A stretch of DNA of 47,794 nt from a virus (lineage: Duplodnaviria; Caudoviricetes). Positions 128 through 42,618 of the stretch are shown piece after piece (the first letter of the stretch is position 1; every line of letters starts with the position of its first letter). The translations under genes were made by a program, and so were the position numbers. Where the stretch lies: positions 1-47,794 of the IMG/VR virus record IMGVR_UViG_3300037851_000408. The stretch is one strand, 5' to 3'. Under the pieces are notes generated by a model, which saw only the letters and a list, made by a program, of their open reading frames with translations, was not told the DNA's origin and did no database searches.

Positions 128-481
128 TACAAAACGGTGCTGACGTGGCACAAGAGCAACGGAACGGGAATGGGCTACTGGCTGAGAGGATACACGGAAC
201 ACCTGCTCATCGGCATACGTGGAAACGTGCCCGCTTTCCGAAACCAACACCCGAACATAATCTACGCTGAGAGAGGTAGGCACAGTGCCAAACCAGATGC
301 GAGCTACGCCCTGATAGAAACTCTCAGCCAAGAACCACGGCTCGAACTTTTCGCCAGACGCAAGCGACCCGGCTGGCATACGTGGGGGAATGAAGTCTCC
401 AACGACGTAGTAGTGCAGAACGGTCGAACTGAGCCACCGCCTGAGAACGAGGCTGGCTCGGAGAAAGGACAATCGAAATGA
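128..481 (+). CDS. MT-A70-family adenine methyltransferase, C-terminal part (5' end missing)
   Basis: YKTVLTWHK..GMGYWLRGYTEHLLIG.RG...HSAKPD...RLELFAR...GWHTWGNE motifs; the N-terminal DPPW motif is absent. Confidence 0.85.
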   Translation, partial: YKTVLTWHKSNGTGMGYWLRGYTEHLLIGIRGNVPAFRNQHPNIIYAERGRHSAKPDASYALIETLSQEPRLELFARRKRPGWHTWGNEVSNDVVVQNGRTEPPPENEAGSEKGQSK

Positions 482-537
482 CCACGGAAGTCAAAGAGCA
501 TGACGGGCAGGCGGTTGGCTCAAGTGAGTTGTTAGCC
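415..537 (-). mobile_element. attC-like recombination site (123 bp)
   Basis: Minus strand reads GGCTAAC-AACTC-ACTTGAGC-CAACCGCCTG...CAGGCGGTG-GCTCAGT-TCGACC-GTTCTGC, i.e. R''/5 bp/8-bp L''...7-bp L'/6 bp/R', with two unpaired extra bases on one arm. Confidence 0.7.
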
Positions 538-846
538 GCTGGCTGGCGTGAATACCCGAACAAATTCAAGAAGTGGGCGCGATGCTTCTACAAGCAGCAC
601 GACACACCAACACGCTGCGCCTGCAACGACGACAAAGCGGGAATCCAAATAGAAATCGCGGTGAGCGATACCGGCGATATGGAAATGGAAGTGAGCGGCC
701 AACTGAAAGACGGCACTTGGATGCACCTGCACAACTACAGCCTACCGCCAACGACAGCGGGAGTGCTCGCGCTGATACCGCGAATGCTCGCAACATGGGA
801 ATCGGCTAACATCAGCAATAACACAAAGTCCGATGAATCGCAGTAA
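478..846 (+). CDS. hypothetical protein (putative cassette gene)
   Basis: 122-aa ORF, AAAGGA RBS, ATGA overlap with the MT-A70 stop. Confidence 0.75.
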   Translation: MTTEVKEHDGQAVGSSELLAAGWREYPNKFKKWARCFYKQHDTPTRCACNDDKAGIQIEIAVSDTGDMEMEVSGQLKDGTWMHLHNYSLPPTTAGVLALIPRMLATWESANISNNTKSDESQ

Positions 847-3828: not shown

Positions 3829-4029
3829 TTAGGCGGGGCCGCCAGCGTCCTCTGTTTGTTGGTGTCGTTCGAGTCGTTCAGCCTTGTGTTTCAAGTCGGC
3901 AAACATGGCATAGATTTCGCGTAATTCCGAATGAATAGGCGAATGGATTTCGTGGTAAGCCTCGCACGCCTTGAACAAGGCGCGGTCCGCTTCCGCCAAC
4001 CAGAGCAATCTATCCTCGACGCCGTTCAT
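3829..4029 (-). CDS. small helical hypothetical protein
   Basis: ATG at 4029 overlaps the subtilase stop. Confidence 0.55.
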   Translation of the reverse strand: MNGVEDRLLWLAEADRALFKACEAYHEIHSPIHSELREIYAMFADLKHKAERLERHQQTEDAGGPA

Positions 4030-6311
4030 TTCTTTCCCTTTCCCGGATGATTGCAATCTTGAGGGCAGTGACGATGGTTTTCCCCGTCCTGACAAATGCC
4101 GTCCCCGCATCGCGGCGGCGGAGGCGGGCAGATGCCGCAATCTTGCGGGCACGTCGAGCAAGTCTCGTCCCCGTTGCACACCCCATCACCGCACACGGGC
4201 GGAGGCGGCGGACAAATGCCGCAGTCATCAGGACACGACGCGCACGTTTCATCGGGGTCGCACAGTCCATCGCCGCACCTATCGGGCGGAGGTTCGACCG
4301 GCGGGATCACCGAGATCAAAAAACTGTCGTATGCGTATCCGCGTGGACTTCCGTTGTCGTAACAGTACGCGCTCACAACATACACGCCCGGCTTGGTGTA
4401 GGTGTGGGTCAACGGATTGGTGGACGTGAACCCGCTGCCGTCGCCGTGGTTCAGCCAGACCGCTTGCAACGTCCCGCCGTCCGGGTCGGACGCAGATACC
4501 GCAATCGTCACCGTAAGCGGGGCGATGCCGTCGAACGACTTGGAGGCGAACGAAATCACAGGCGGCTGGTTGGTTGTGCCCGGTGGGATGCCAACCGCCG
4601 TGGCTTGCACGGTGTTCAGAGCGGCGTCCGCGACTGTAACAGTCAGTCGCACGGAGTAATTCGTTGGCCAGATGCCGGATTGATAATCCGGCAGACAACA
4701 CGCGAACCCGCTGGACGTGGCGAACGCCCACCTTGTCAGGTCGTTTTCGGGGTCGGACACCGAAACCGTCATCTTCATTGTTGCCGAGTTGGTCGGATAC
4801 GAGAAAGCTGCCGATACGGTGGGCGCGGCGTTGGCGACGGTAGGATGCGCGAAGGCCGTCAGCGGTATCTCCGCCATTGTGCTGCCGCCGTGCCCATCCG
4901 CCACGGATGCGGTGCCGATAAGGTGGACGTTCCGCACCGATGGCTTGGTGATGTGACCGCCGTTGTCCGGTGTCGAGGCGAGCAAAAACATGGTGTCGAT
5001 CAGCTTGACGGCCACTGACCCTATGCCGGTGTAAATCGAGTCCCCATCGGGGTCATCGAAGAAATCAGTGGAAAACTCGTACCTGTCCCCGCTGACAATG
5101 ACGATGGGCGACGGCGTCGATGCCTGTTCTGGAGGCCGGTTGGCTGGTGTTCCGTTGTAGGGATTGGCCGACAGTCGGCGCAGGTTCAGCCGCCCTTGCG
5201 TGGTTGAGTTTTGCATCTTGCCGTCCGGGTCATCCAATATGTCGAGCGAGTCGGGATGCAATAACACGTCGCGCACCTGCTTGGGTGTCAGGTCTGGCCG
5301 TTGCGCGAGCAACAGCGCGGCGGCACCGGCCACGTGCGGACAAGCCATCGAGGTTCCGCTTTTGCTTTCGTACCCGTCGCCGGGCACGGTGGATACGATG
5401 CTGGAGCCGGGTGCGGCAAGGTCGGTTGAAGCCACTCCGTAGTTGGAGAACCCACTGGCCGACTCAACCGACCCGCCCCACTCCGTTGCCTGCACGGTCA
5501 CAATCCCCTCGTCGGCATACGCCCCCGGATAATGCGGCTTGCTGTCGTTGTTGGCATTGGCGTTCCCGGCGGCGACGACATGAATGATGCCAGCCGATGT
5601 TGCGGCAGCGAAAGCGTCCCGCAACGCTTGCAAGTATCCGCCGCCGCCCCATGAATTACTTGTGACCCTGATGTTGTGCCCGGCTTGTTTGAGGGCAATC
5701 AGTTTGTCCAACAGCAAGGCCGCATCCGATGACGCGCCGCTCCCGCCTGCGCCCAAAAACTTACAGGCAATCATTTTCACCCGCCAATTCACGCCGACGA
5801 CGCCCACCGCGTTGTTGCCGACTGCCCCGATGGTGCCAGCGCAATGCGTCCCGTGGCTGTTGTCGTCCATGCCTCCCACGGTCAACACCCCGCCCATCGC
5901 CGTGTAACCGTGCTCGCCGTCTGGCCCGGTCCAGATATTCGCCGCGAGGTCGGGATGGTTCCAGTCGATGCCGGTGTCGATGACGGCCACAATAATGTCG
6001 TGTGACCCCGTGGACTGGTCCCAAGCCGATGCCGCCTCGATGCGGGACATTCCCCACAACTGGCTCAACATCGGGTCATTGGGCGTCGCCGCGATGGACA
6101 CCTGTTGGTCGCGCTCGACAATCTCGCCGCCCTCGATGTCTCCCTCCGCGTCCGCCTCGACGATCATCCAATGTTTGACGTGCTTCAACTTCTGGACGAC
6201 GCGGCACTTACCCCGCAGGTCGCCCTTGGATTTCACCAGAAACAAATCAGCGTTGGCCGTTGACCCGAACATCAACGCCGCCACACAGAACAATGTCGTC
6301 AGTCGTTTCAC
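4026..6311 (-). CDS. secreted S8 subtilisin-like serine protease with PKD/Ig-like domains and three C-terminal CGDGxC repeats
   Basis: Catalytic motifs VAVIDTG, HGTHCAG, AAGN, GTSMACPHVAG; signal peptide after GTG at 6311; HTYTKPGVYVV PKD motif. Confidence 0.93.
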   Translation of the reverse strand: MKRLTTLFCVAALMFGSTANADLFLVKSKGDLRGKCRVVQKLKHVKHWMIVEADAEGDIEGGEIVERDQQVSIAATPNDPMLSQLWGMSRIEAASAWDQSTGSHDIIVAVIDTGIDWNHPDLAANIWTGPDGEHGYTAMGGVLTVGGMDDNSHGTHCAGTIGAVGNNAVGVVGVNWRVKMIACKFLGAGGSGASSDAALLLDKLIALKQAGHNIRVTSNSWGGGGYLQALRDAFAAATSAGIIHVVAAGNANANNDSKPHYPGAYADEGIVTVQATEWGGSVESASGFSNYGVASTDLAAPGSSIVSTVPGDGYESKSGTSMACPHVAGAAALLLAQRPDLTPKQVRDVLLHPDSLDILDDPDGKMQNSTTQGRLNLRRLSANPYNGTPANRPPEQASTPSPIVIVSGDRYEFSTDFFDDPDGDSIYTGIGSVAVKLIDTMFLLASTPDNGGHITKPSVRNVHLIGTASVADGHGGSTMAEIPLTAFAHPTVANAAPTVSAAFSYPTNSATMKMTVSVSDPENDLTRWAFATSSGFACCLPDYQSGIWPTNYSVRLTVTVADAALNTVQATAVGIPPGTTNQPPVISFASKSFDGIAPLTVTIAVSASDPDGGTLQAVWLNHGDGSGFTSTNPLTHTYTKPGVYVVSAYCYDNGSPRGYAYDSFLISVIPPVEPPPDRCGDGLCDPDETCASCPDDCGICPPPPPVCGDGVCNGDETCSTCPQDCGICPPPPPRCGDGICQDGENHRHCPQDCNHPGKGKK

Positions 6312-6348
6312 GTCCCACCCCCTGTATTTGATGTTTCTATGCGTTACC

Positions 6349-6807
6349 TCATGGCGTGTAGGGCAAATCCGCCTGTCGCGCCAGTTCAGCCATCGCTCCA
6401 ATGAACACCTGTCCAAACGTAGAGTCCGTCCCAGCGAGCGCGAAACAGTTGGCAACGCGATGAACCGAATGATCGGCGAATATCACGGTCGCAACTACTG
6501 CCTGTTGCGGGTTGGGTGCTGATACGGTGATAACCGCTGGGTCGTCCTGTCGGTTCGCCTGTCGTTTGACCTCCGACACCAGCGCGGTCAGCATCGCATC
6601 AAATGGCGCGTCATCGGCGCGTTTGGCGGTGATATTGCTTGACCCGACGCTCTTGCCGCCGGTGGCGAGCAGGTAGGTGCCGTCATACGGCAGAAACCGA
6701 GCGGAATACACTCCCGGCCTGCCGTTGGCGGGCATCACGATTTGCAATGACGTAATCCACATGCCGCCGAACGTGGACGGTGTGATAGGTGTGGGATTGA
6801 GTATCAT
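6349..6807 (-). CDS. hypothetical protein (tail region)
   Basis: AAGGA RBS, co-oriented 152-aa ORF. Confidence 0.7.
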   Translation of the reverse strand: MILNPTPITPSTFGGMWITSLQIVMPANGRPGVYSARFLPYDGTYLLATGGKSVGSSNITAKRADDAPFDAMLTALVSEVKRQANRQDDPAVITVSAPNPQQAVVATVIFADHSVHRVANCFALAGTDSTFGQVFIGAMAELARQADLPYTP

Positions 6808-27868: not shown

Positions 27869-28551
27869 TGGTGCATCCTCCACGGTGATAGAAGTTTGAC
27901 GATTTTGGTGTGCAGGGCGTCGTCACCAAACCCAAACTTCTTGTAAAGTTCCTCCGAGACCGCCTGTTGTTGCAACCAGCGCGTCTTGCGGCTGATGGCC
28001 ACGCACGGAATCGACTGCGTTTGGGTCAGCACGGCAAAGAACGGGTCAGCATAGTTGGGAACCGGAAAATCGCGCATCGAGCATTTGATGCGACCGGCGC
28101 GGACGGCAATGGAATTGGTGGCAAGCAAATGGCAACACACGTCCTGCGTCAGCGACTCTTGGAAATTGATCTTGCTTCTGTCTTTGTAATAGCTGGTCAC
28201 CGGTTCCTTGATCCACACACCGTGCAGCCCGACCACCGGCCTGCCTTTGTAGTGATCAAGCCGCTCGTTCATCCGCTCGGCGTAATCGGGCGGGTAGATG
28301 ATGTCGTCATCGCAGATGAAAATGGTGCCATGCACAATCTTGTCCAACCACCAGAACTTCCCGGCGTCGCCATGATTTTTCCCGTGAATGGCGTATGAAA
28401 CTTTCGGGTGATGGAGAAAGTCGGGCACTTCCGTGTATTCGTTGAGATACACGCGCACTTCGTCCATCTGCGGCAAGAGGCTTTTTACGGTAACTTCAAG
28501 TTGATCTCGCCGCTTGGGGTAAGTGGCCAAGCAGGCTGTATTGGTCGTCAT
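27859..28551 (-). CDS. GT-A fold glycosyltransferase
   Basis: ATYPKR, GDAGKF, CDDDIIYPPDY. Confidence 0.85.
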   Translation of the reverse strand: MTTNTACLATYPKRRDQLEVTVKSLLPQMDEVRVYLNEYTEVPDFLHHPKVSYAIHGKNHGDAGKFWWLDKIVHGTIFICDDDIIYPPDYAERMNERLDHYKGRPVVGLHGVWIKEPVTSYYKDRSKINFQESLTQDVCCHLLATNSIAVRAGRIKCSMRDFPVPNYADPFFAVLTQTQSIPCVAISRKTRWLQQQAVSEELYKKFGFGDDALHTKIVKLLSPWRMHQCQ

Positions 28552-29266
28552 AAAATCTCCAAGTTTTCATCGGTGGGCGGTGGTCGTGCATCACACTTTT
28601 CGTCTCGTCCTCCTTCGTGAATGAGACAAGTGGATAATAGGCGGTCTTGCGCGAGCGGCGCATCCCCATTGCAATCGCCTTGGCTACGCCGCTCGAAGCG
28701 TTTGGATTTTCCTTCCACCATCGTTCGTCCGGCTGTGGAACGCCGTTTGGAAGGATATGAAAAATCGAGGCGTCTGTCATGAACACGCACTCGACCCATT
28801 TGCAGCACATAAACTCGATGTTCTTCCAGACGGTCAACAGCGGCCTGCCGGTGTCGTACACGTTCTCGCGTCGCTCGTGCCTGCCGTCCAGCCGCAGCAT
28901 CATGATGCCACGCTGGCTGTCCTGAATGGCGTTCCAGTAATCCATCGTCACGCGAAAGAAATCTCGGCACAGGAAATTGTCGTCTTGAAGGAAATAATAG
29001 AAATCCGCCTGATGGGTTGCCAGCCGCTTGAGGGCGTCGTTGTACGTCTTGTAAAACCCGCGTTTGCCGCGACGTTTCGGGTAACGGACATACCAGACCG
29101 GTGCGCCTGCTGTTGCCGCGACCATCGGGGTTTCGTCCTCGCTGCAATCGTCAAATACATGAATGTCCATCGCGCACTCAACCGGCTTCATCTCGCACAC
29201 TTGGGCGAGCAGCCTCTTGAGAAGCGCGGCGCGGTTGCAGGTGGTGATGACAACGGAAAGTTTCAT
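28496..29266 (-). CDS. GT2 glycosyltransferase
   Basis: SVVITTCNR, VFDDCSED, FLQDD. Confidence 0.88.
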   Translation of the reverse strand: MKLSVVITTCNRAALLKRLLAQVCEMKPVECAMDIHVFDDCSEDETPMVAATAGAPVWYVRYPKRRGKRGFYKTYNDALKRLATHQADFYYFLQDDNFLCRDFFRVTMDYWNAIQDSQRGIMMLRLDGRHERRENVYDTGRPLLTVWKNIEFMCCKWVECVFMTDASIFHILPNGVPQPDERWWKENPNASSGVAKAIAMGMRRSRKTAYYPLVSFTKEDETKSVMHDHRPPMKTWRFYDDQYSLLGHLPQAARST

Positions 29267-30144
29267 TGGTAGCGAGGAATCAACATGCAAAGACAGTTGA
29301 GATGCGCCGGAAACGCAGCCAAGACCGGGTCGCCAACGGGATGAAATCCCGCAAGCAAATCGCACACGTCCTTTCGGGGATGACGCGGTGAAAGCACCCA
29401 TTCATATCCCAGCAATTTGTCCGTGGCCTCGGCGTAGTCGCGCAACCCCTTGTGAAACGCGCCGTTGGCCTCCGTGTCGGCAATAATGGCGGTCTTGGCG
29501 TAGGCCGAACCGCGACGAGTCAACTGGCCGCTGAACGTCTCTCGACCGGTGATGATGGCCTGCAAGGTGCGTTTGTAGTCGCCGATGCCCTCCCCCATCG
29601 CCGAGCGCACCCGCACCAGCGAGCGAATGTTGAAGTCGAGGTCGGACCCGACCTTGGCCAACTGCTCCGACATGGGAATCCTGATTGCGCCACTCAACAA
29701 AAAATCATTCAACCCGGTACGAGCCAGCAACTCGCGCTGGGACAACAGCAAAACATACCCGGTGCCCAACACGATCTTCAACTGTTCCTCCGCCTCGTCT
29801 TGGCCGAGGGCGATGGCGCGTTCGATGTTCTCGGTGATGATTGCCTCCACCCTGTTCATCTGGACGGCAATCATGTTGGCGAGCGCCGGTTCAATGTCGT
29901 TGGCGTCCACCACGCCGCTGTTGTTGTCGTGCATCAACAGGAACCCAATCACCTGCGCCGTGAACTGGTCAAAACTTTTTTGCAGTTGCCTCTCCACCTC
30001 CACCGCGTCACGGAACATCTCAAGCCGTATCGGCGTGAGTTTCTTGCCGCGCAACAGGTTTTCCAGTTTGCCGAACTGCGATACTTCGGCGATTTCAGCG
30101 CAGCCGCATTGATTGTGGTGCTTGTGGTTTGCCGTTGGTTCCAT
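29263..30144 (-). CDS. minor head/morphogenesis protein (Mu gpF/SPP1 gp7-like)
   Basis: IADTE...W...C.....PAHLNCLC C-terminal motif; follows portal. Confidence 0.85.
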   Translation of the reverse strand: MEPTANHKHHNQCGCAEIAEVSQFGKLENLLRGKKLTPIRLEMFRDAVEVERQLQKSFDQFTAQVIGFLLMHDNNSGVVDANDIEPALANMIAVQMNRVEAIITENIERAIALGQDEAEEQLKIVLGTGYVLLLSQRELLARTGLNDFLLSGAIRIPMSEQLAKVGSDLDFNIRSLVRVRSAMGEGIGDYKRTLQAIITGRETFSGQLTRRGSAYAKTAIIADTEANGAFHKGLRDYAEATDKLLGYEWVLSPRHPRKDVCDLLAGFHPVGDPVLAAFPAHLNCLCMLIPRYQ

Positions 30145-31669
30145 TCTGGTTTCCGTTTCGATTCGCCGCTTTCATCATGGCCATCATTTCCTGCTGGGCA
30201 CTTGCCTCGTCCTCCGCCTTGATCGTCTTTTCAACCTCGATTTGCTGGCGTTCCTCATCAGAGTTGTACCCCAGCCGAACCTGTGCCGTGCGATCACTGA
30301 CCCAACCGCGCTCGGCGTGTATCACCAGAGATTCGGTTGTTTCCTTGACGTTCTGTGGCATCAAGGATGGATACAAGGCCAGAAACTTCGTGTTGCGCTT
30401 GACCAACTCCCGGCTGCGGCTGATGACGCCGTTATTCACCTTCACGGTTTCCTTGTAGCTCATGGGGTCGAGCCGACCGGACCGAATGGCCGATTCCACC
30501 ACCCTTGTCCCCATGCGCTCGAACGTGCCCATGCCGAAAAATCTCTGGTATCCCTCGAAGGTGCGGATGCCGGGGTACGTTGTTTCCCTGATGCTGGCGT
30601 AATCGTTATTCGAGGCGTCCGTGGCCACGATGTATTCGGGAACACCCAGCGCCGTCCCGATGCACAACAGCACGCGCCGAATATCGGCGTCCCCGTCCTG
30701 CGCCTGCATGTTGGGCGTCTTGAACTCGCGCTTGCGACCGCCCCCCAAGACCTCGATGGAACCGATTTCGGGTGCCTTGATTTTGTCGCGGTCGGCCCCG
30801 GTGCCGCCCACTTTGTTCGCCTCAACCCACGCCTCCACCATGTCCGGTCCGCCCTCGACGTATTCCTCAATCGCGCACGAGCAACGTACCTGATGAAGTT
30901 TGCGCCGGGCTTGCAATATCATCTCCAACTCAATCAGGTATTTCATGGCCGCCATCAACAGCGGACGACCGCGTTTCATATCCGGTTGTCCCATCTTGGT
31001 GTGGATGACCTGATCTGCCGGTATCGGGGTCATTATGCCGTTGCGGTTGGCGTCATACCAGTAGCGCAACACGCGCATGGAGTCACCCGGAGCGGTTTCC
31101 ACGCCGAATGATTGGATGGCTGGTGAGCGGTATCCGGGAGATCGGACATATAACGGTGACATCTTGCGATAGGCCAACTGGCCGTTGGACGGATAAACGT
31201 ACTCGCGCTGGAAATCTTCCCCCATGATGAGCGATTGGCGCACGACATCGACGGCAAATATCTCGAACGGGTACGGGGCGCTGGCCTCCGGCCCGGCGAC
31301 GTTCTCGGCGAACTTGTCCCACACCTCCTGTGTGCGCGGGTCGTGGTCGAGCGACTTGAGTTGGAACTCGTCGCCGACGATGAACCGCACAAACACGTCA
31401 ATCCACCCGTGGGCCAGCGGGTGTTCGACATACAGTTTGTACATTCGTCGCTGCAATTCCTCCAACTGGCTCTCGTCGAGTCCGTCCGCACTGGTGTAAT
31501 TGACAAGGTCGAACAACGTCGAGTTGTCATCATACTTTAACAGGCCGCCGGATTCGCCCACGACAACGCTGTGTTGTTTTGCAATGTTTGACTTGAGCTT
31601 CCTCATCGCCGCGTTGAGTTCGTATTTGGCGGTCGCGTTTTCGTACATCGCTTTGAACAATCGTAACAT
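30095..31669 (-). CDS. portal protein (lambda-like)
   Basis: GVE, VIH....RGRPLL, GVPE...DASNNDYAS motifs; follows terminase. Confidence 0.88.
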   Translation of the reverse strand: MLRLFKAMYENATAKYELNAAMRKLKSNIAKQHSVVVGESGGLLKYDDNSTLFDLVNYTSADGLDESQLEELQRRMYKLYVEHPLAHGWIDVFVRFIVGDEFQLKSLDHDPRTQEVWDKFAENVAGPEASAPYPFEIFAVDVVRQSLIMGEDFQREYVYPSNGQLAYRKMSPLYVRSPGYRSPAIQSFGVETAPGDSMRVLRYWYDANRNGIMTPIPADQVIHTKMGQPDMKRGRPLLMAAMKYLIELEMILQARRKLHQVRCSCAIEEYVEGGPDMVEAWVEANKVGGTGADRDKIKAPEIGSIEVLGGGRKREFKTPNMQAQDGDADIRRVLLCIGTALGVPEYIVATDASNNDYASIRETTYPGIRTFEGYQRFFGMGTFERMGTRVVESAIRSGRLDPMSYKETVKVNNGVISRSRELVKRNTKFLALYPSLMPQNVKETTESLVIHAERGWVSDRTAQVRLGYNSDEERQQIEVEKTIKAEDEASAQQEMMAMMKAANRNGNQNGTNGKPQAPQSMRLR

Positions 31670-31717
31670 GATTTGCCTCCTTGACTGTATGTAAAGAAAC
31701 CGAAATCACCAACAAAG

Positions 31718-34153
31718 TCAACGTGCAAGCATCAGTGCCGAGCGCACCATGACCCTTTCCTGCATCGGAACGAGGATGTTGAACGCCCCGCTGGATGCGT
31801 CCACGATGTCGTCCTTCATGCGTGGCTGGCCGAACAATGTCAACTCGTCGAGAAACTTGGCGTTCCAACCGGCGGCCTTGATGGTGACAAGCCCGTTTTG
31901 TGCGGCGCTGGCCAGCGGTCTTGCCCGGAGCAGTTTGTTGGTGTTGGGGTAGGAAAACGTGTACCAGTGGCCGGACAAGAGACGCTTCAACCGTTCTTTT
32001 TCACCCAGTCCCGCCGCGCCTGGCTGTTGTTCGATGCCGACGCAGACACGGGGTCCATCGGAAATGGCAGTCTGCTTGATGATGCGGTCAACCTCCGGCG
32101 GCGTGGAACGGAAATGAACCAGATCGAGTATTTCAATGGTGCCCTTGTGTGTCTTGCCCATCAGGACACCAGCGGTGAAATCGGGATTGGTATTGTTCCG
32201 GGTTGGAAGTTTCCCGGCCATGTCCCAAAACCGCACCATCTTGACGTAGTTGCCATCCAGCGCCGACTCATCGGCGACGTTGAACCATTCCCGGTGGAAC
32301 ACGTCGCCGGACTTTCTGACATTCCAATCGCCGTTGAGCAGTTGGCGGCGCAGGTGCAGCGGCAGATGCGACAGGCTTCGCTTGTACGCCTCGCGGTCGA
32401 GAAACGGGTTGTCGTCCACCTTGGCCGGTATGAAAATCCTGTTCTCGGTCTGGTTTTCGATGAAGTAACTCTTGATGAACTCGTGGCTGATGCCGCCGGG
32501 GTTGGCGCTGGCCCTCATGCGGATGGGGACAGGGAACCCCTCCGGTCGGCGCAGGCGCGAGTGCATGTAGAGGTACATTTCTTCCGTGAAGTTTTCCAAC
32601 TGGTCGAAGAAAATGTATTGCCACTCGGTTCCGAGATACTTGTAGATGTCGCTCTCGTGCTCCATGTGGCCGAACTGGATGACCGCTCCTTCATTGGATT
32701 TGAAGTTGCGGTTGGCCTCGCTCCAAGACACCTGCTTTTTTCGCTCGAATGGTGCCAGCCACTCGCGCATCATCGGGATTAATCCGCCTTTCATGGTCAA
32801 CTCGCTCCATGTGCGGCGCAAGAGCAGGGCGGCGTACCCGTTGACATCGAAGTATTGCAGTGAGGCAATGGCCCCGCCTGCGGAATTGTGCGTCACGATG
32901 AAGTCGTCAGCCACAAACAATCCCGATGGGTGGTCAACCGTGATGCACTTTGTATGCTCACGACCGGCACGAGTGATGTTGGTGATGGTGCGCCAGCCAG
33001 TTTTTTGTTGTGGCGTGCAACGGTTTTTCTTCCGCGTCAGATGGAAAAGGCAATCGGTATCTTGTCCAGATACGTGTATGTTATAGGCGAGACGACATGA
33101 AACTTTTGTGCCGTTTTTGTCCCGGTACGAGGCTTCCTTTTCATAAATTGTCGCTTTGAACCCGATGCTTCTCAAGAGCCATTGGACATCCAATGCCAAC
33201 TGTTTTGACGTGCTGCAATAGGAAGCCTTGCCGTCTTTTTGAATGGTTCCATCTGTATCAAACAATCCCTGCAACAGGTTGATTCGGTCGGCCACCGGTG
33301 CCAGACGGTAAGGCTCTGGAATAAACTTGTTCCACGAACTTGCGTTTTTCAGCCCCATGTCATTCAGCAATCGCAACGTCCGATTGTCGTCGCGTAGTAC
33401 GTGAATATGATTCTTGCGCTGAACATCAATTCCAAGCAGACGGATTCGCTGATAGATTTCCTCGTCCACCGATGAGATTTCAATTTTGTAATCGGTAATG
33501 TGGCCATCCCCAATCACCACACCGAGCAGGTAGGGGTCAACCAATCGCTTGTGACCCCATCGGTTATCAATGACACGCGAAAACTCAAGCGGCTGTGATA
33601 GCGGCACCATCGGTCGATATTGTCGTTTGTTCTCTGATTGCTGTTCCATCCATCGCGCCAACCACCATGTCGGGACAACACGACCGGCAACCCCTCGTTT
33701 CGCAAGAGTCTTTTGTATTTTGCTGGCCATTTTCACCAGCCACAAATGATCGGCGTCCACCCTGATTTTTGCGCCATCGGAAAACTCAACGTCATATACA
33801 TCCTGCTCACCCCTGTCTGTGACCTGCATGATTTTAGTGAGCGACCCATCCGGCGCATAAACACGATGTCCAACCTCAAGGTCAAAAAACGACTGGGGGC
33901 CGTACTGCGTCATGACAATCCCATTTTTTGTCAACCCCTTCCCTCCGCCCGCCGCGCCTCCGAACAGACATTCTTCCCCCATGTACATCAGCAGGGCGTG
34001 TTGCTTCTCGTTGTGGCGACCTTCTTTGTCCGTGTACCACGCGGTATTGTAAATGGAACGTCGCGGCGTCACGTTTATCAGACCGGCCTTGATGGCCATA
34101 GCCAGCGGATTTGTTGCTTCGCGTCCCGGTTCGTGGTTATATTCTTCCGACAT
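31718..34153 (-). CDS. terL: terminase large subunit with intein (start 34153 or 34099)
   Basis: Walker A GGAAGGGK/S split by the intein, IFFDQ Walker B, SANPGG, RFWDMA, DDIVDA nuclease motifs. Confidence 0.93.
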   Translation of the reverse strand: MSEEYNHEPGREATNPLAMAIKAGLINVTPRRSIYNTAWYTDKEGRHNEKQHALLMYMGEECLFGGAAGGGKGLTKNGIVMTQYGPQSFFDLEVGHRVYAPDGSLTKIMQVTDRGEQDVYDVEFSDGAKIRVDADHLWLVKMASKIQKTLAKRGVAGRVVPTWWLARWMEQQSENKRQYRPMVPLSQPLEFSRVIDNRWGHKRLVDPYLLGVVIGDGHITDYKIEISSVDEEIYQRIRLLGIDVQRKNHIHVLRDDNRTLRLLNDMGLKNASSWNKFIPEPYRLAPVADRINLLQGLFDTDGTIQKDGKASYCSTSKQLALDVQWLLRSIGFKATIYEKEASYRDKNGTKVSCRLAYNIHVSGQDTDCLFHLTRKKNRCTPQQKTGWRTITNITRAGREHTKCITVDHPSGLFVADDFIVTHNSAGGAIASLQYFDVNGYAALLLRRTWSELTMKGGLIPMMREWLAPFERKKQVSWSEANRNFKSNEGAVIQFGHMEHESDIYKYLGTEWQYIFFDQLENFTEEMYLYMHSRLRRPEGFPVPIRMRASANPGGISHEFIKSYFIENQTENRIFIPAKVDDNPFLDREAYKRSLSHLPLHLRRQLLNGDWNVRKSGDVFHREWFNVADESALDGNYVKMVRFWDMAGKLPTRNNTNPDFTAGVLMGKTHKGTIEILDLVHFRSTPPEVDRIIKQTAISDGPRVCVGIEQQPGAAGLGEKERLKRLLSGHWYTFSYPNTNKLLRARPLASAAQNGLVTIKAAGWNAKFLDELTLFGQPRMKDDIVDASSGAFNILVPMQERVMVRSALMLAR
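32885..33937 (-). mobile_element. class 3-type intein with LAGLIDADG homing endonuclease (351 aa)
   Basis: Starts GLTKNG, block B DHLW, YLLGVVIGDG and LLQGLFDTDG, block F TKCITV, ends VTHN before Ser. Confidence 0.9.
34114..34143 (+). promoter_or_regulatory. putative sigma70 promoter for near-leaderless terS
   Basis: TTGCTT-N18-TATATT, ATG at 34152. Confidence 0.45.
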
Positions 34154-34658
34154 GCAAACACCAGATAACGCCGAACCGGCAAAAGTGCAAGGCGACAAAG
34201 CCAAAAAACCGCGCCGCAAGCATTGGCGCGGGAGACGGTACGAAGTGTTGAAGTACGTGGCTGAGGTGTACACCGTCAGCCGCGCCGCCATTCTGGCCGA
34301 AGTCCCGATTGACACGGTGAAATGGTGGATGAGGATTGACCCGTTGTTCAGGGAATCGGTCGAGGAAGCGCAGGCGACCGCCATCGACCGAATCGAGTCC
34401 CGACATTTTGAGGCCGCGTTCGGCAACGATACGGCCAGCCGGATCCACCTGCTCAAGAGCCACAAGGGTCACTTATACGCCGAACAAACAAGACCAGAGG
34501 CGACCGGCGGCGGTGCCAAGACGGTGAACATCCTGCAAATCAACACCGACCCGCAGTTGGTAGCCAGCGCCCTCAAGATTCTGTCGGGGACTGGTCTTGG
34601 ACAGCCTTGTATCGACGCTGCAAACACCCCGGCACCCGAAGCCTCCGACGAGGAATGA
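34152..34658 (+). CDS. terS: terminase small subunit-like HTH protein
   Basis: SRAA..AEV...TV.WW...DPLF..SVEEA...AID.IE...AA..ND....HLLK pattern; adjacent to terL. Confidence 0.75.
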   Translation: MQTPDNAEPAKVQGDKAKKPRRKHWRGRRYEVLKYVAEVYTVSRAAILAEVPIDTVKWWMRIDPLFRESVEEAQATAIDRIESRHFEAAFGNDTASRIHLLKSHKGHLYAEQTRPEATGGGAKTVNILQINTDPQLVASALKILSGTGLGQPCIDAANTPAPEASDEE

Positions 34659-35664
34659 GTTTCCCATCCTTGTCAAACTTGGGCTGGCGCATCTGCTTTT
34701 CCCGCATCCGCCAGTAGCGCAGGGATTCATACGGGCGGTGCTTGGATTTGCCCGGCGGGTCGTACTCCACCGTGATCCGCGTGTCCTGTTCCTTGTCGAA
34801 CGGCGTGCCGTCCGGCAGTATCCCCAGCGACCGCCACCGCTGCCAATCGGTCAAAATATCGCGGACATAGGTGTAGGTCAGCGGATTTTTTAGGGGACCG
34901 CGCCGGGTGTACCCCATGCCATTGAGCCTTTTGGCAATCTCTTGGGGGCTTATCCCGCCGCGCCAGCAGGAGATGGTCTCGGCAAGAAGTTCGATTTCCA
35001 CGGGGTTCTTCCGCAGTTTTTTCACCTCCACGACCTTGCCGTTCCTCGGATTGGTTCTCATCTCGCCGTCCGTGTAACACTCGTACCCGAACGGCGGCTT
35101 GCGCGTCCACGACTCGCCGCGCTCCAGTTTCTTGCCAAGCACAACCTTGGCAGCGTCACGTTTCATGGCTGATTCCATTTGGGCGAAGGCGGTAATGACG
35201 TGGAAGATCATCCGCCCAATGCTCGAACCGGTGTCGATCATCGAACCGCCCACGTCAAGCAGGTGGATGTTGACGTGCATACTGTCCAACCGGTGCATGG
35301 TGGACAGGGTATCCATCGCGTTGACAAACAGCCGGTCAAGGCTGACGGCAACAAGGTTCAGCACCTTGCCCTCGTGTGCCGCCAACATCAGTTTGCGACC
35401 CTCTTTCCTTGCGGCAATCACCTCGCTGCCGATGGTGGACGTCTCCTCGTAGATGGTCGTCAGGTTCAGGTTCTTGAGTTCACAGTAGGCACGGATGCGC
35501 TTTTTCTGTTCCTCGATGGGCACGTACACCTGCGGCACGTTCTTTTCCGCTTTGGAAACCCGAACATACCCCACCGCCTTGAGACGCGGGTCGAGGTCGG
35601 GTACCTCGAACAACTTGGGGTCGATGCCCGGCGGCAACCCGAAATCTTCATACTTTTCGTTCAT
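34573..35664 (-). CDS. serine recombinase (resolvase plus recombinase domain)
   Basis: GYVRVS catalytic Ser, SLDRL, FAQMES, KPPFGY, EIAKRLN. Confidence 0.92.
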   Translation of the reverse strand: MNEKYEDFGLPPGIDPKLFEVPDLDPRLKAVGYVRVSKAEKNVPQVYVPIEEQKKRIRAYCELKNLNLTTIYEETSTIGSEVIAARKEGRKLMLAAHEGKVLNLVAVSLDRLFVNAMDTLSTMHRLDSMHVNIHLLDVGGSMIDTGSSIGRMIFHVITAFAQMESAMKRDAAKVVLGKKLERGESWTRKPPFGYECYTDGEMRTNPRNGKVVEVKKLRKNPVEIELLAETISCWRGGISPQEIAKRLNGMGYTRRGPLKNPLTYTYVRDILTDWQRWRSLGILPDGTPFDKEQDTRITVEYDPPGKSKHRPYESLRYWRMREKQMRQPKFDKDGKLIPRRRLRVPGCLQRRYKAVQDQSPTES

Positions 35665-35743
35665 GACCGTCTATGTTCGCACAAAACAGTGACGGTCGCA
35701 ATTTTTGCTTGCACAACCGCTGTTATTGTCATACTTTTATTCC

Positions 35744-35959
35744 ATGACACACAAAAACATACAGTCCGTTGCGCGGCAGGCGGCGCTGGATATCTGCGAG
35801 GTCGTGGACCGGTCAAACGTGGAGTTGTCCATCTACGGGGCGCGAGCCTTCTACCCGGAAGGGTTCTGGCTGGTCATTGACGGTCAGCGATACCGTTTCC
35901 GAATGGGCGATTTCCAGATTGCAGTCCCATTGGCCACGGAGGCACCTCATGGGACGTAA
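35744..35959 (+). CDS. hypothetical protein
   Basis: ATG shortly after a CATACT -10-like box. Confidence 0.55.
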   Translation: MTHKNIQSVARQAALDICEVVDRSNVELSIYGARAFYPEGFWLVIDGQRYRFRMGDFQIAVPLATEAPHGT

Positions 35960-36113
35960 CCGATTGAGCGAACTGGGCTACGCCGCGCGCGTCACGGTCA
36001 CGCTCCCGCCAGAAGCCATCGACGCCCTGCACCGCATCAAAACCAAGAAAAAAATCAAGAGCATCAGCGGCACCGTCCTCTGGTTGATCCGCAAATACAG
36101 GAAATCACCATGA
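35949..36113 (+). CDS. ribbon-helix-helix DNA-binding protein
   Basis: GGAGG RBS; RVTVTLPPEAIDAL...SISGTVLWLI. Confidence 0.7.
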   Translation: MGRNRLSELGYAARVTVTLPPEAIDALHRIKTKKKIKSISGTVLWLIRKYRKSP

Positions 36114-36337
36114 ACCCAATAGACAAAAGCAAACAAATCCTCGAAAAATGGCAGCACGACAATTGTACGGTCGTCCACGTCACCATCAGCATCGGCTCCG
36201 CCTTGGACGGCGACCTCCTGTTCGATAAAACCAACGGCAGAATATGGGCCTTCTCTCCGGGATTCCCACAATCCGAACGCATCAAAAAAATCGAGGCCAT
36301 CGCACGCGACCTCTACCTCCAAATCAAACCGTCATAA
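36110..36337 (+). CDS. hypothetical protein
   Basis: AGGA RBS, ATGA overlap. Confidence 0.6.
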   Translation: MNPIDKSKQILEKWQHDNCTVVHVTISIGSALDGDLLFDKTNGRIWAFSPGFPQSERIKKIEAIARDLYLQIKPS

Positions 36338-36365
36338 CCCCATCAAAATATCATAAACTTTTCGT

Positions 36366-36394
36366 TTGACTCAATAACCAACATGGTGTACAAA
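36366..36394 (+). promoter_or_regulatory. putative sigma70 promoter
   Basis: TTGACT-N17-TACAAA. Confidence 0.55.
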
Positions 36395-36469
36395 TCAATC
36401 AACATGAAACCTCTTTCAGCCAGACAACAACAATTCCAGTCGGAAGCTGGAAAAGGTAGTTCATGTTAC

Positions 36470-36504
36470 ACCCCGCCCCCGAAAGAGGGCGGGGTCGTTT
36501 TTTT
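36470..36504 (+). terminator. intrinsic terminator
   Basis: ACCCCGCCC...GGGCGGGGT stem followed by T7. Confidence 0.8.
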
Positions 36505-37107
36505 CACAAGCCCAGCGGGAGCCATCATATCCACCCACGCCAAGCAGGAACAATCCCCTCGCTCGGCTTTAATCCCGCCCCGGTAACCGCCCCGTATCCG
36601 AATCATCTAGGTCGGCGCGGCCAAGGAGAGCGCAGGGAAATCGTCCAGCCCTGCTTCATTCACCACGACTCCACCCAGCCCCGGTTAGTAGGCTAGACTC
36701 GGATGTGTCACATCTCTGGTCGAGGGGTGGATGGCTGAACCTGTCAGCCAGCTTCGTACCACCACTTTAAGCGTCCTATTCATCCCTAGGACGCTTTGTA
36801 CCCTCACTTCCAAAACGCCTCCCCTCTCCTACACCACACCAGTTGTAAGTGGTAAAAATTGCCGAGTCATGGGGTGAAAAAATTGTGGGAGGGGTTTAAG
36901 CAATGACACCCCCCATACCCTCGAAAATCCAATCATGCAATGCAATCCGGTGATGGTTCATCATTTTGTACCATTGCGAAGCAATGCTGATTCAAAAAAA
37001 AATCAATTTATTACTCACGAAGTGAGCTGATTCCGGCGCAAAAACTGGTATCCTCTTGTGAATGATGCACTTGTGAAAGGTGGATTTTGGTTGTGGGGAA
37101 GGTGGGC

Positions 37108-37147
37108 AAAAAAAACCACCGGTCAACATTGTGCGTGTTGACCGGTG
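37108..37147 (-). terminator. intrinsic terminator
   Basis: 12-bp stem CACCGGTCAACA/TGTTGACCGGTG with A8 on its left. Confidence 0.8.
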
Positions 37148-37175
37148 TCTTGTGTGGGGGTTGCGTTAAGCTGGG

Positions 37176-37478
37176 TCAACATCCGCTCATGATGACCAGC
37201 GCGACGGATACGAGCACGGACACGATGACGACGATTGATGCGTCTGTGTCTGCCTTGACCCATCGCGCAAGGCGCTTGGGCCAAGTTCCAGCCTTGTCAT
37301 TCCACTGCCAAGACCATTCTTCCGTGTCATGGCCGGGTGGCGTCGCCAACCCGCGTTCTGCCATTTTAGCTTGGATAATCTCGATGCCTTGCAACGATAG
37401 TTCGGCCGTTGGCCAGCGCGTCGATGCGCGTCCCTGCCCGCGCAAGCCTACCGTGTTTGTTATACTCATGCTGTCCAT
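37176..37478 (-). CDS. small protein with C-terminal TM helix
   Basis: ORF lies between a promoter-like site and a terminator. Confidence 0.55.
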   Translation of the reverse strand: MDSMSITNTVGLRGQGRASTRWPTAELSLQGIEIIQAKMAERGLATPPGHDTEEWSWQWNDKAGTWPKRLARWVKADTDASIVVIVSVLVSVALVIMSGC

Positions 37479-37548
37479 CCCTTCTGTTTGGTGTTTTTGT
37501 TTGACTTTTCGGCGGGGTACACCCCCGCCGCATGTTTCAATCTTATAA

Positions 37549-37565
37549 CGCAACAACCGTGCCAG
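37549..37565 (-). promoter_or_regulatory. sigma54 -24/-12 promoter motif
   Basis: CTGGCACGGTTGTTGCG versus consensus YTGGCACGRNNNTTGCW. Confidence 0.6.
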
Positions 37566-37712
37566 CAAGCGCCAAGCCTCGACGTAACAGGATTGTAACA
37601 CGTTTTCTGTCAACTGTTTATGTTGCCATTTTGACCCGCCCACCCTTGCCCGCCCACCCTTGCTCTCCTCCCCCCTCCCCCCCCTTAAAGGAAAGACGCC
37701 GCTGGATGCCTA

Positions 37713-37754
37713 CAACGGCGTCCAACGGCGTCCAACGGCGTCCACCAACGGCGT
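37713..37754. repeat. 10-bp tandem repeat CAACGGCGTC x3 plus an offset fourth copy
   Basis: Directly visible. Confidence 0.9.
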
Positions 37755-37756
37755 TT

Positions 37757-38038
37757 CTACATGAACCAGCCGACACGTTTGGACCAGCAAACGGCGGCCC
37801 GTCGCACACGATCAACTTCTTGGAGTGCGTTGTCGTCAACACGGCACTGATCGGGGGTACCTGACCAATGGAAAGACGCTCCGAATCGGTCGGAGCGTTC
37901 GCCATCGTACCAGTGAACAACGCCGTAGTCATCGAACCAGACGCCGACCAACCTGTACGTCAACCCGCTATCAACGGCGGTGATTGTGCCCCTGCTGGCC
38001 TCACAGCGGACGTTGGGCTTAATGTTGGCAGCCTTCAT
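37757..38038 (-). CDS. hypothetical protein
   Basis: AAGGGG RBS, MKAANIK start. Confidence 0.55.
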   Translation of the reverse strand: MKAANIKPNVRCEASRGTITAVDSGLTYRLVGVWFDDYGVVHWYDGERSDRFGASFHWSGTPDQCRVDDNALQEVDRVRRAAVCWSKRVGWFM

Positions 38039-38246
38039 CGTTCTCACCCCCTTCCGTGTCACCGGTGGCCGCCGGTGCGTTCTTTTGGGCATCCTTGAGT
38101 TCGGCTCGGCAGTCGTCGCATCGGTCGTCGGGTTCAGGCGGTTCCACGAACCGCTGTTTGCCGCAGCCCGGACATTCATAAGGCTGGCAGCAATCCCCTT
38201 CTGTATCGTCCCATCGTTGTTTGCAATGAGGGCATCGTCCCATCAT
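38019..38246 (-). CDS. Zn-finger protein
   Basis: Three CxxC pairs. Confidence 0.6.
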   Translation of the reverse strand: MMGRCPHCKQRWDDTEGDCCQPYECPGCGKQRFVEPPEPDDRCDDCRAELKDAQKNAPAATGDTEGGENDEGCQH

Positions 38247-38247
38247 T

Positions 38248-38694
38248 TTAGACCCCCCCTTTCTTGGTGGACGTGGCGATGTTCAAGAGTTCGAGCGCGG
38301 ACTGGAAACAATCGAACTGGTCAAGCTCGCCGGTCATGGCCTCGCGGACCCAGTCATCGCCACCGGCGAACACGCACAAACTTCGGACGGCCTCGCGGAG
38401 CCGGGCGAGTTGTTTGAGCATCGACTCACGTTCAACCAACAGGTCATCAATGCGCCCGTTGGCCAGCGCGATGTACTGCTCCATGTCCCGAATCCGTTGT
38501 TGCAACAACGGGTGATCGTTCACGCACCGAACGGCGTGCTCGATATTGGCGTCACGCTCGCAGGGTGTGGTATTTGGTTCATCGCGGTCGGCGAGCAAGA
38601 GCCGGGCAGACCTTGTGTCCCACACACAACCATAGGCCACCGTCCACGGGGTCAAGCTGTGTTTTTTGTCCTGATGCTGATTCCGGTCGTTCAT
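38248..38694 (-). CDS. phage hypothetical protein
   Basis: GAGG RBS; H.LTPW..ANIEHAVRCVN motif plus coiled coil. Confidence 0.7.
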   Translation of the reverse strand: MNDRNQHQDKKHSLTPWTVAYGCVWDTRSARLLLADRDEPNTTPCERDANIEHAVRCVNDHPLLQQRIRDMEQYIALANGRIDDLLVERESMLKQLARLREAVRSLCVFAGGDDWVREAMTGELDQFDCFQSALELLNIATSTKKGGV

Positions 38695-38768
38695 GTTGTT
38701 CCTCTCTGTTGTTGGTAAGTTTCAATCGACAACCGCAATCTAACGCAACAAAAGGGAGGATGCAAGAT

Positions 38769-39002
38769 TTATTTTTTTGTTTCCACAAAAGCCATTGGGG
38801 GGCGGCCAATCCGGTCGCGGCGGTTCCAGCGTTTCGAGCCGCGTTTCTTGGCCATCAACTGCCGGTTGTGTTCCAAACACCGGGCACCGTACCGGCTGGT
38901 GCCAATGGATTTTTCTTGGCCGCAACGGACGCACAGGCCCTTGGCCTGCATCTTGGCCTGCCATCGGCTGATTGCGGCTCGTTGGCTGGATGCTGTTTTC
39001 AT
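38769..39002 (-). CDS. small basic Zn-finger protein
   Basis: GLCVRCG...CLEH. Confidence 0.55.
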   Translation of the reverse strand: MKTASSQRAAISRWQAKMQAKGLCVRCGQEKSIGTSRYGARCLEHNRQLMAKKRGSKRWNRRDRIGRPPMAFVETKK

Positions 39003-39160
39003 TACGCAACAACCTGCGTCAGCATCGGGACGCGGTCAAGATGAAAAAAACTTTCATTTTTTTGTTGCGTTATCGTATCGGCGGCGTATGCTGTGGAAGT
39101 CGAACGGCGTTGTTCTGGTGAACAGCGCGACAAAACAAACTCAACCAAAAGAGGGATACA

Positions 39161-40204
39161 ATGAACCTCATGGAAGCATCAGTACAGTGGGCCAAACGGC
39201 CTACCGACCAGCGTTTCGAGACGCTGGAAACCCTACAAATGGCGGTGGACAACCGCCGCAACCAGAGCCGGGCATTTGACGTGCCCAGCAACACCATCCG
39301 CGTCAAGGCAGATGACGGTCGCCTTGTCGTCAACGGTGCCACGCTACCCGCGCTGCCGACTCACTGGGGCTTTGGCCAGTTGTGCCAACGCGCCAAGGCA
39401 CCGGCGTCGTACCTGCGGACGTTGCCGGTCGAACAGGCGGCAAGCTGCCTGAACATCAGCCTTGACCAGCGCGACAGCGAGCCGGTCAAGATTCTGACGA
39501 GGTGCGATGCTGACGCCCCGCAGATGGCCGCCGTCACCAGCCAACGGTACGGCAGGATTTGGGACGCTGACGTTGTGGCATCCACCAAGCGGCTTGTCGA
39601 GCGCACCGGTGGGCGGTTCTTCAACCCGAAGGAATGGGGCGGCAAACCGTCCGGCTTGTATGCCAGCGATCATGACGTGTTTATTTTCATGATCGACGGC
39701 GGAAGCATCGTGGACGGGGGCGGCCCCCGCGACCAACTGAACCGTGGTTTCATGGTCTGGAATAGCGAAGTCGGGGCCAGCACGTTCGGCCTGATGACGT
39801 TCCTGTTCCGTGTCGTCTGCGGCAATCACATCATTTGGGGGGCCGAAGATGTCAACCGGTTGCTGATTCGCCACACAAGCGGGGCACCGAGTCGGTTCGA
39901 TGCCGAGGCCATGCCTGCCCTGCTGGACTACGTGAACGCCAGCGCCAGCGTGGCGGAAACCACAATCCGCAAGGCAAAAGACATCCTGTTGCCGGACGAT
40001 GAAACCGACCTGTTCAACAGGTTCGGGACTTTTACACGTCCCGAATTGAGGATGGCGATGGATTACGCGAGGCGCGAAGAAGGCGACTGCCGGACGCTCT
40101 GGCAGTTGGTCAACGGTCTGACGGCCAGCGCACGGGATTTGGAATACATCGACGCCCGTGTGGATTTGGAGCGCCGAGCCGGACGGTTGTTGGAAACGGT
40201 CTAA
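39161..40204 (+). CDS. DUF932/DUF945-like phage-plasmid protein
   Basis: YGRIWD, NSEVG, RVVCGNHII, RHTS motifs. Confidence 0.75.
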   Translation: MNLMEASVQWAKRPTDQRFETLETLQMAVDNRRNQSRAFDVPSNTIRVKADDGRLVVNGATLPALPTHWGFGQLCQRAKAPASYLRTLPVEQAASCLNISLDQRDSEPVKILTRCDADAPQMAAVTSQRYGRIWDADVVASTKRLVERTGGRFFNPKEWGGKPSGLYASDHDVFIFMIDGGSIVDGGGPRDQLNRGFMVWNSEVGASTFGLMTFLFRVVCGNHIIWGAEDVNRLLIRHTSGAPSRFDAEAMPALLDYVNASASVAETTIRKAKDILLPDDETDLFNRFGTFTRPELRMAMDYARREEGDCRTLWQLVNGLTASARDLEYIDARVDLERRAGRLLETV

Positions 40205-40212
40205 ACCACAAA

Positions 40213-40241
40213 GAGGGCGGCCCCATAGCGAGGGCCGCCCT
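40213..40241. terminator. GC-rich hairpin
   Basis: GAGGGCGGCCC/GGGCCGCCCTC; A-rich flanks, no plus-strand U tract. Confidence 0.55.
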
Positions 40242-40263
40242 CGAACACAACAAGAAAAACACC

Positions 40264-40614
40264 ATGAACCAGACAGAAAACAAAAACAAGACGGTCAACT
40301 GTCCCGTGCCCGGCTGCGCCGCAACCGGTCTCACGTCGCAGGGGATTGCGGTTCACTGCTACCGCACGCACAAGCGGCGATTGTCCGATGCCGAATGGAA
40401 CCAGCTTGGGTTCGCGCCCCGTTACATGAGGGGCGGCGGTCAAGAACAATCCTCATCAACGGCGTCTCCAGCCCCATCAACGGCGTCTGGAGCGGATCAA
40501 ACGGAACGCCATAAACGGCGCTCCAAACAAACCACGCTGCCCACGGTCAGTTTTTGCCCGTGTTGCGGCACCAACCTCAAGGCGGTTGCTATCGCCTTGA
40601 CCATGAAAGGATAG
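40264..40614 (+). CDS. C2H2/CxxC Zn-finger protein
   Basis: CPVPGC...H...H and FCPCCG. Confidence 0.7.
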   Translation: MNQTENKNKTVNCPVPGCAATGLTSQGIAVHCYRTHKRRLSDAEWNQLGFAPRYMRGGGQEQSSSTASPAPSTASGADQTERHKRRSKQTTLPTVSFCPCCGTNLKAVAIALTMKG

Positions 40615-40620
40615 ACATAC

Positions 40621-40914
40621 ATGAACACCTCAACCAAAACCCAACCGCGTCGCGTGAGGTTTTTGTCGAACGACCACGACTTCCGTTGCGCGTATCTGGC
40701 GTCGCTTGGTTTTAGCCGCGCCTACATCGCGGAAAAGACCGGGCTGACGAAGTGCCAAGTCGGATACCGCAACAACAGGGCGGGGATTAAGCTGACCGAT
40801 TACCGCAATGGAACGAGCCGGGTTGCGCGGATTGTCATGAGCGAGGCGGATCAAAAGATCGCCTCTTACCTGCGTGAAAAGCTGGCCAGCACAGAGGAAA
40901 GGGGGGACAAATGA
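40621..40914 (+). CDS. HTH DNA-binding protein
   Basis: LGFSRAYIAEKTGLTKCQVGYR. Confidence 0.7.
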   Translation: MNTSTKTQPRRVRFLSNDHDFRCAYLASLGFSRAYIAEKTGLTKCQVGYRNNRAGIKLTDYRNGTSRVARIVMSEADQKIASYLREKLASTEERGDK

Positions 40915-41105
40915 GCGCACTGAACGAGTCAGAAGTACGGCGGTTGGCTCTCGACCACGCAAACCGAAGGATGGAAGCCCTCGGCTTGACGAGAAGGTTT
41001 GATCGTGTCAGCAGTCAATTCCTCGACGCCGTCCGCAACGATGTCGAGGCCGCCATCTATAAGCGGTCAACAGCCTATTGGCAGAAGGGAGTCACGTTGA
41101 AGTAA
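40911..41105 (+). CDS. short histone-fold-like protein
   Basis: helix-RVS-long helix-KGVTL pattern. Confidence 0.55.
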   Translation: MSALNESEVRRLALDHANRRMEALGLTRRFDRVSSQFLDAVRNDVEAAIYKRSTAYWQKGVTLK

Positions 41106-41380: not shown

Positions 41381-41402
41381 CAACCTGAAAGGAATCCGCA
41401 TC

Positions 41403-42482: not shown

Positions 42483-42618
42483 CCGATTGGCGCGGCATGG
42501 GCGTGGTGGCCGGGGATGTCCCGGCACGGGCCTCATTGCGCTGTTGCTCTGGTGAGTAACAAGCGTTTCTCTCTAGCCTAGTGAATCACCATGACGCGCC
42601 TTTCTTTCAGGAAAAAAC

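Follow-up and report, generated by a model that had tools for sequence, protein, structure and literature searches.

A probable back-to-front integron cassette closing a phage early operon

Background

The closest described systems are the CALINs of phage genomes, attC sites that occur without intI and often carry DNA methyltransferase cassettes; of six phage attC sites tested there, five underwent IntI1-mediated recombination with attI1 (Qi et al. 2023, PMC9892861). Classical integrons are known to show coupled translation at attI1 and to contain short ORFs within attC sites (PMC8876359). Phage attC clusters are already published; a reversed and coupled layout was not found in print, nor was any account of phage attC arrays that are at once reversed, coding and coupled, within a literature coverage from which subscription papers were mostly absent.

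Here we analyse a locus that resembles the phages of PMC9892861 in having an attC site without intI and a methyltransferase as neighbour. It differs from them in that the 123-bp site stands ahead of its gene and has both arms within coding sequence. In the main text and part of the supplement of that study, antisense genes and coupling are unmentioned; its Dryad or bioRxiv files might show the layout. We consider it probable that positions 421-809 are a back-to-front integron cassette standing at the end of the early operon, likely inserted by an integrase that the host supplies.

Results

Genomic setting

The window, by which we mean the whole stretch of DNA analysed, is the whole virus record of 47,794 bases, linear and about 65% complete; all coordinates below are read on its plus strand unless otherwise stated. 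Terminase, portal and capsid genes occupy the minus strand; the plus strand carries an early operon from about 39161. Bases 1-127 are an exact 127-base duplicate of 46854-46980, and this duplicate joins an N6_N4 methylase gene, from its middle, with the 3' half of an MT-A70 gene. It is probably an assembly overlap, with the finding reported here situated beyond it; a real deletion variant is a possible alternative origin. Because of the duplication, the MT-A70-family methyltransferase gene (128..481; PF05063, E 3e-16) is seen as its 3' half only, the 5' half being absent from the record. This gene is likely to be itself the preceding cassette, judging from its cassette forms in loci L022 and L101.

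Several other features of the record were observed. The terminase large subunit (31718-34465, minus strand) has central LAGLIDADG and Hom_end domains, likely an intein, and directly upstream of it lies a serine resolvase-type gene (PF00239, about 34573-35664, minus strand). A subtilase (Peptidase_S8) with PKD domains (4026-6455, minus strand) is found at the end of the structural operon. A G-rich stretch is repeated at 46620-46660 and 47350-47380, each time before a gene, and the first copy pairs into a hairpin with a C-rich tract upstream. The cassette gene is separated from the gene that follows by about 440 non-coding bases (847-1284) with several hairpins (fold z -1.6), possibly a structured RNA; this segment had no Rfam match and no similar DNA in annotated phages. 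A search of 300-1300 against Rfam gave no significant match, a tRNA search found none, and no promoter-like site was found on the plus strand of 1-2000.

An attC site at 415-537

The preliminary description reported a hairpin of attC geometry at 415-537, and its coordinates were verified. The top strand of the site is the minus strand of the window, and its recombining bottom strand is the coding (+) strand. Read along the latter, the site begins with the R' core GCAGAAC (415..421), which belongs to the upstream methylase cassette, has its predicted crossover at 420/421, and contributes its AAC as an Asn codon to the methylase gene. A 6-nt spacer (422-427) leads to the L' box ACTGAGC (428-434), which with the left stem arm spans 428..443; within it, CTGAGCCACCGCC reproduces exactly the arm seen in chromosomal attC sites of Limisphaerales. 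The stem is made by nine pairs between 435-443 and 508-517, with T516 left unpaired as the second extra base, and is followed by L'' GCTCAAGT (518-525), which has one extra A, a 5-nt spacer (526-530), and R'' GTTAGCC (531-537), which carries the GTT triplet. The right stem arm through R'' (508..537) is translated as codons 11 to 20 of the cassette gene. The full attC geometry is present: AAC/GTT cores, a 5-nt spacer beside R'' and one of 6 nt beside R' (5 to 8 nt being allowed for the latter), L boxes pairing at 7/7, and both extra bases. On the bottom strand the first extra base is A here, G in the aadA7 site and C in most host sites.

R'' had been said to pair imperfectly with the R' now beside it and perfectly with a core at the far end of the gene. 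We indeed found pairing with the adjacent R' at just 4/7, whereas GTTAGCCG (531-538) and CGGCTAAC (803-810) are perfect reverse complements, a match of 8 bp.

A geometry scan over both strands of the 47.8 kb recovered this single site; at neither of two stringencies did any of 30 order-3 Markov controls yield one. The preliminary description had called for an attC model search; our own covariance model, trained on 17 bacterial (host) attC sites only and giving rough E-values, scored 415-536 at 30.3 bits (E 5e-7), the sole significant match in the window and above background, the next best reaching 11.4 bits. In bulk folding energy the region does not exceed shuffled sequences (z -0.9 to -1.7), so the attC signal is one of geometry and not of stability. 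Under constraints of our own, an approximate pfold, the probability of the recombinogenic fold, was 0.14 for the site where it now stands; the predicted circle gave 0.26, compared with 0.36 to 0.50 for six host sites; with these same constraints the site lies above the 0.1 class which, like the definition of pfold, we took from the accessible part of PMC5371416. As far as sequence criteria go, 415-537 is confirmed as a real attC site.

Near the end of the contig, 47425-47465 and 47612-47635 both show an R'-like and an R''-like core at gene junctions, without paired L boxes. The second is loop-less and is given an E of 1 by the model. They are likely to be decayed attC sites of the same array.

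Limits of the cassette

The predicted gene cassette spans 421..809 (389 bp), and its own R' core, GGCTAAC (804..810), is complementary to R'' at 7/7, with a predicted crossover at 809/810. Two kinds of evidence, the breakpoints of homologues and the co-variation of core sites, agree with the limits first proposed for this unit, namely AA^C at 420/421 and at 809/810.

Breakpoints were found through a metagenome scan, in which 80 loci encode relatives of the cassette gene. Four homologous loci were counted, L016, L021 and L022 among them, whose agreement with the window extends as far as the AAC at 808-810 and breaks off immediately thereafter; the core corresponding to 808-810 also opens the following attC in L021 and L022. 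At the other limit, the end of the L022 methylase is homologous up to the AAC at 419-421, and a different attC comes next. Gene order differs correspondingly: methylase, X, Y, cassette gene and Z in L022, where X and Y are two other cassettes, methylase then cassette gene in the window. At the protein level, Asn111 is common to ten close proteins, which have ten different tails, three of these within one 90% cluster. Most homologues without any attC nevertheless end in Asn as well, and the boundary Asn is therefore partly the natural end of the protein.

As for the cores, 8 of 42 distinct homologues have complementary ones (6-7/7) at both gene ends, and the other 34 score 5/7 or less; the 42 are those with a locatable gene core out of 82 sequences, the rest being duplicates or partial. 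In the eight core-paired homologues, a GTT or ATT near the start is matched by an AAC near the end, with five heptamer pairs at varied positions.

Comparison of relatives for presence or absence of 421-809 had also been advocated. It yielded the breakpoints at AAC, but the exact empty-site allele was not found. Likewise, no relatives sharing the right flank were found, relatives of the next gene sitting in another context without sites, and 400-820 had no match among 50,697 annotated phages. When 420 was joined to 810 in silico, the methylase gained an in-frame stop, and the predicted circle was also closed in frame. Taken at the level of sequence, these data support 421-809 as a real gene cassette by origin.

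The cassette gene (478..846) encodes a small alpha/beta phage protein of 122 amino acids (predicted model pLDDT 88; 33 homologues including itself), whose residues beyond Asn111 are encoded by the neighbouring DNA. No Pfam, PHROG or PDB fold match was found for the protein, and its best Atlas hit (0.84) has no family; the predicted fold resembles only uncharacterised phage proteins.

A reversed layout with a predicted translational junction

In the typical layout, a top-strand gene is ended by its attC. This is absent here: the gene is on the bottom strand and starts inside the attC, so that the antisense orientation noted at first agrees with the comparative tests. The ribosome-binding site and start codon had been placed in the attC loop, overlapping the upstream stop, and are found there within 466..481: the motif AGGA (466-469) stands 8 nt ahead of the ATG (478-480), which overlaps the upstream TGA (479-481).

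Junctions of this type recur as arrays in other phages. An exact search of IMG/VR with the 19-base right arm gave 0 matches. With a looser pattern 14 loci were obtained, seven of which are phage arrays of the same type (L002, L005, L008, L010, L012, L014 and L015); L009 may be another, though the scan showed no site in it. L003, L004, L006, L007, L011 and L013 look like chance matches to the looser pattern and were rejected as phage arrays. In 53 loci, all 26 model matches are opposite in strand to the gene that orients the locus.

We then classified sites by the state of the upstream gene at the AAC. Among 64 phage sites, counted per site with gene families pooled, and in part chosen by patterns resembling 415-537, the upstream gene crosses the triplet in frame at 38 and in another frame at 2, ends on a TAA within the core at 9, and was not found at 15; in these counts, one frame is often closed by the TAA of the core. 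The same four categories hold 3, 6, 6 and 50 of 65 host sites on the same strand. Of the 38 in-frame phage cases, 36 have the stop inside the site and 23 a start there; start and stop are at most 8 nt apart in 15 cases and overlap exactly in 12. Predicted coupling across phage attC sites is common, yet it is no rule.

A bacterial attC family and a candidate host

A pattern scan across GTDB with the two arms, which served as our cross-phylum comparison, returned seven loci, all in Verrucomicrobia, two of them titled Limisphaerales and one subdivision 3. In six of the seven, attC sites accompany genes in the classical direction, several forming long arrays; no array was seen in L111, and that of L112 abuts a complete integron integrase gene (intI). 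TIGR02249 scored above cut-off in three of the five genomes behind these loci, and an integron integrase is present in 41 of 121 sampled Limisphaerales genomes. The exact arm pair occurs in 29 of 401 Limisphaerales genomes, and a reversed control pattern in 0. Compared with host attC sites, the window site is identical over 13 bases of the left arm and agrees at 24/31 at the right end.

Apart from one weak match (E 8e-4), the 401 Limisphaerales genomes yielded no copy of the cassette gene, and 28000-47794 had no close DNA match, spacer-like or prophage-like, to Limisphaerales genomes. Since neither is matched there, it is the attC sequence that points to the host, likely a Verrucomicrobium of the Limisphaerales.

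In a Verrucomicrobiae genome, L110, L114 and L116 are large chromosomal integron arrays with very uniform 99-bp attC sites, and a few of their cassettes appear to have bottom-strand genes, as in the phages.

Discussion

How the cassette may have been inserted and may move

The following course of events would account for a back-to-front cassette. The bottom strand of the attC, here the coding strand, would fold when single-stranded; the host IntI would cut AA^C of the R' on a cassette circle and join it to a core site of the phage. As the AAC is an Asn codon in its frame, the upstream gene would read on through it into the new attC and stop in the loop, on the ATG of the cassette, while the cassette gene would take its tail from whatever DNA comes next. 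We propose that insertion, excision and reordering would in this way keep the stop and the coupled start of every gene, such that only short unstructured tails change. Since a single intact site is left in this phage, the array may be largely spent.

Whether the cassette is still mobile depends on its right flank (811..846), which gives the in-frame stop and is neither an attC, having no model match, nor a recognisable host attI. Against a profile built from 15 host attI candidates chosen by eye, 811-822 scored -5.1, a value reached by 33% of background AAC sites; a host-type attI from 811 onward is not supported. The sole fitting base is the first after the core, A here and in 12 of the 15 host attI candidates, and in 0 of 63 host attC sites. 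The flank also resembles one arm of L022 at 9/11, with no second arm seen. It is possibly a secondary site with a GWT core, a diverged attI or a decayed attC. Because it is not an attC, excision of this cassette by attC x attC recombination is unavailable today, and the cassette may be integrated yet hard to excise. Six other phage array ends were scored with the attI profile: L129 (6.1) and L134 (2.7) are host-like, L131 also reached 2.7, and three are not. The host-attI-like ends were located at about 2990-3010 in L129 and about 7910-7930 in L134.

These observations bear on a first alternative, that a real attC and a former cassette have become a fixed relic, the hairpin surviving only as code for the ends of the two genes. 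A single insertion at a secondary site, or loss of the partner site, would have led to this state. In its favour, the record holds one intact site, the remnant at 47612-47635 is loop-less, the right flank is not attI-like, and most homologues have no attC. Insertion at a GWT site leaving a single attC, and attC loss by slippage, are moreover described by Loot et al. (10.1101/2022.09.11.507474). Against a relic, the site has retained 7/7 L-box pairs, both extra bases and a 7/7 core match across 270 bp, and its approximate pfold is 0.14 in place and 0.26 in the predicted circle. We regard a relic as rather unlikely; it would in any case touch present activity and leave the origin of the cassette unchanged.

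Which enzyme made the insertion is a separate matter. In agreement with the tyrosine integrase reported as lacking from the window, no PF00589 match was found in this 65%-complete record, which could hide an integrase in its missing part; nor does it contain a nearby intI gene or, at the array head, a recognisable attI, as a complete integron would. PF00589 was also absent from nine of ten other array-bearing phage records, including six of the seven that are at least 90% complete. Several array-bearing phages hold near-exact copies of host attC sites in the early operon. Since such phages mostly lack a tyrosine recombinase and carry these copies, host IntI is the likely enzyme. That the host provides the integrase is a plausible idea which now has firmer ground, given the arms shared with Limisphaerales chromosomal attC sites and the integrase present in 41 of 121 genomes of that order.

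It is very improbable, in our opinion, that the work was instead done by a recombinase of the phage, either of the tyrosine type and encoded in the missing third or the PF00239 serine resolvase. The incompleteness of the record, the presence of the PF00239 gene and the weak PF00589 match in one array-bearing phage, G411, could be cited in its favour. The near-complete phages without PF00589 speak against it, as do the arms, which are of the kind found in chromosomal sites linked to IntI. The substrates of serine resolvases are double-stranded sites, and not bulged hairpins.

Finally, homologous or slippage exchange between similar arms with no integrase, the attC look being inherited from captured host DNA, would profit from arms common to many phage and host sites and from the exonuclease and RusA-like protein encoded by the phage, but it predicts neither breakpoints exactly at AAC with unrelated sequence on one side nor cores that co-vary within each cassette, and we give it hardly any weight.

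Origin of the cassettes

Retaining a cassette inserted by a host integrase as the preferred reading, we may ask where such cassettes come from. One speculative answer, which we hold only tentatively and think less likely to be right than wrong, is that phages are a birthplace of integron cassettes, in that ordinary phage genes repeatedly gain a host-type attC at their start, and that host IntI shuffles the resulting self-coupling modules within the phage operon and exchanges both sites and cassettes with the chromosomal integron. Natural GTT and AAC codon sequences at the gene ends would then serve as core sites. In a tree built from 69 homologous cores, nine changes are required to place the 16 cassette-type rows, at least four of them forced by well-supported branches; this tree has 89 columns and an unsettled bootstrap, protein-only rows were labelled by N-terminal motif, and L016 was given no label although it has a degenerate arm. 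The two forms of the gene, cassette and non-cassette, are interleaved on it and the cores lie at differing positions, which suggests repeated gains of attC; repeated loss from one ancestral cassette is a possible alternative. Regarding trade with the chromosome, the phage site L136 and the L112 chromosomal site beside intI share the same ATG-bearing loop, about 7 of 111 bases differing by eye, and the host-attI-like ends of two phage arrays point the same way.

To our knowledge, how cassettes arise is an open question in the integron field. A gene that exists with and without an attC offers a direct handle on it.

Significance and comparison with known systems

The present locus is a modest, one-site example, but its breakpoints are clean, there is a candidate for the host integron, and the gene family occurs in both forms. 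If the proposal is true, phages would employ the host integron integrase as a gene-shuffling tool of their own, through recombination sites so shaped that operon translation survives a swap. Some of the mosaicism of phages would then have a precise mechanism, and hosts could be predicted from attC sequence. On the practical side, annotation tools assuming that an attC follows its gene will mis-assign reversed cassettes.

Among the phages of PMC9892861, TJE1 has its site in the classical direction. MW202573 (L168) shares the reversed layout: two weak reversed-strand model matches, at 2069-2132 (E 0.009) and 2619-2703 (E 0.03), are opposite to the annotated genes, a fact unremarked in the text of that study. 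A CALIN comprises at least two attC sites; with just one significant site the present record is formally a SALIN, the term for a single attC site lacking integrase; related phages bear long attC clusters. In the accessible part of 10.1101/2022.09.11.507474, SALIN/attG cases likewise present a lone cassette at neither attI nor attC, with a GWT core. Those SALINs, as presented there, are classical cassettes in bacterial chromosomes, whereas ours lies in a phage operon, reversed and in frame with the upstream gene.

The Limisphaerales chromosomal integrons (L110-L116 and L139-L167) are alike in the identical 13-base arm, the 24/31 right end and the box spacing, and some of these host sites share an ATG-containing loop with the phage sites. 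Their arrays differ in having intI, attI and mostly non-coding sites positioned after their gene. Lastly, the site resembles synthetic coding attC sites, going by the available part of PMC7439510, in that an attC doubles as protein-coding DNA; compared with the engineered sites presented there, it is natural and also bears a translation junction.
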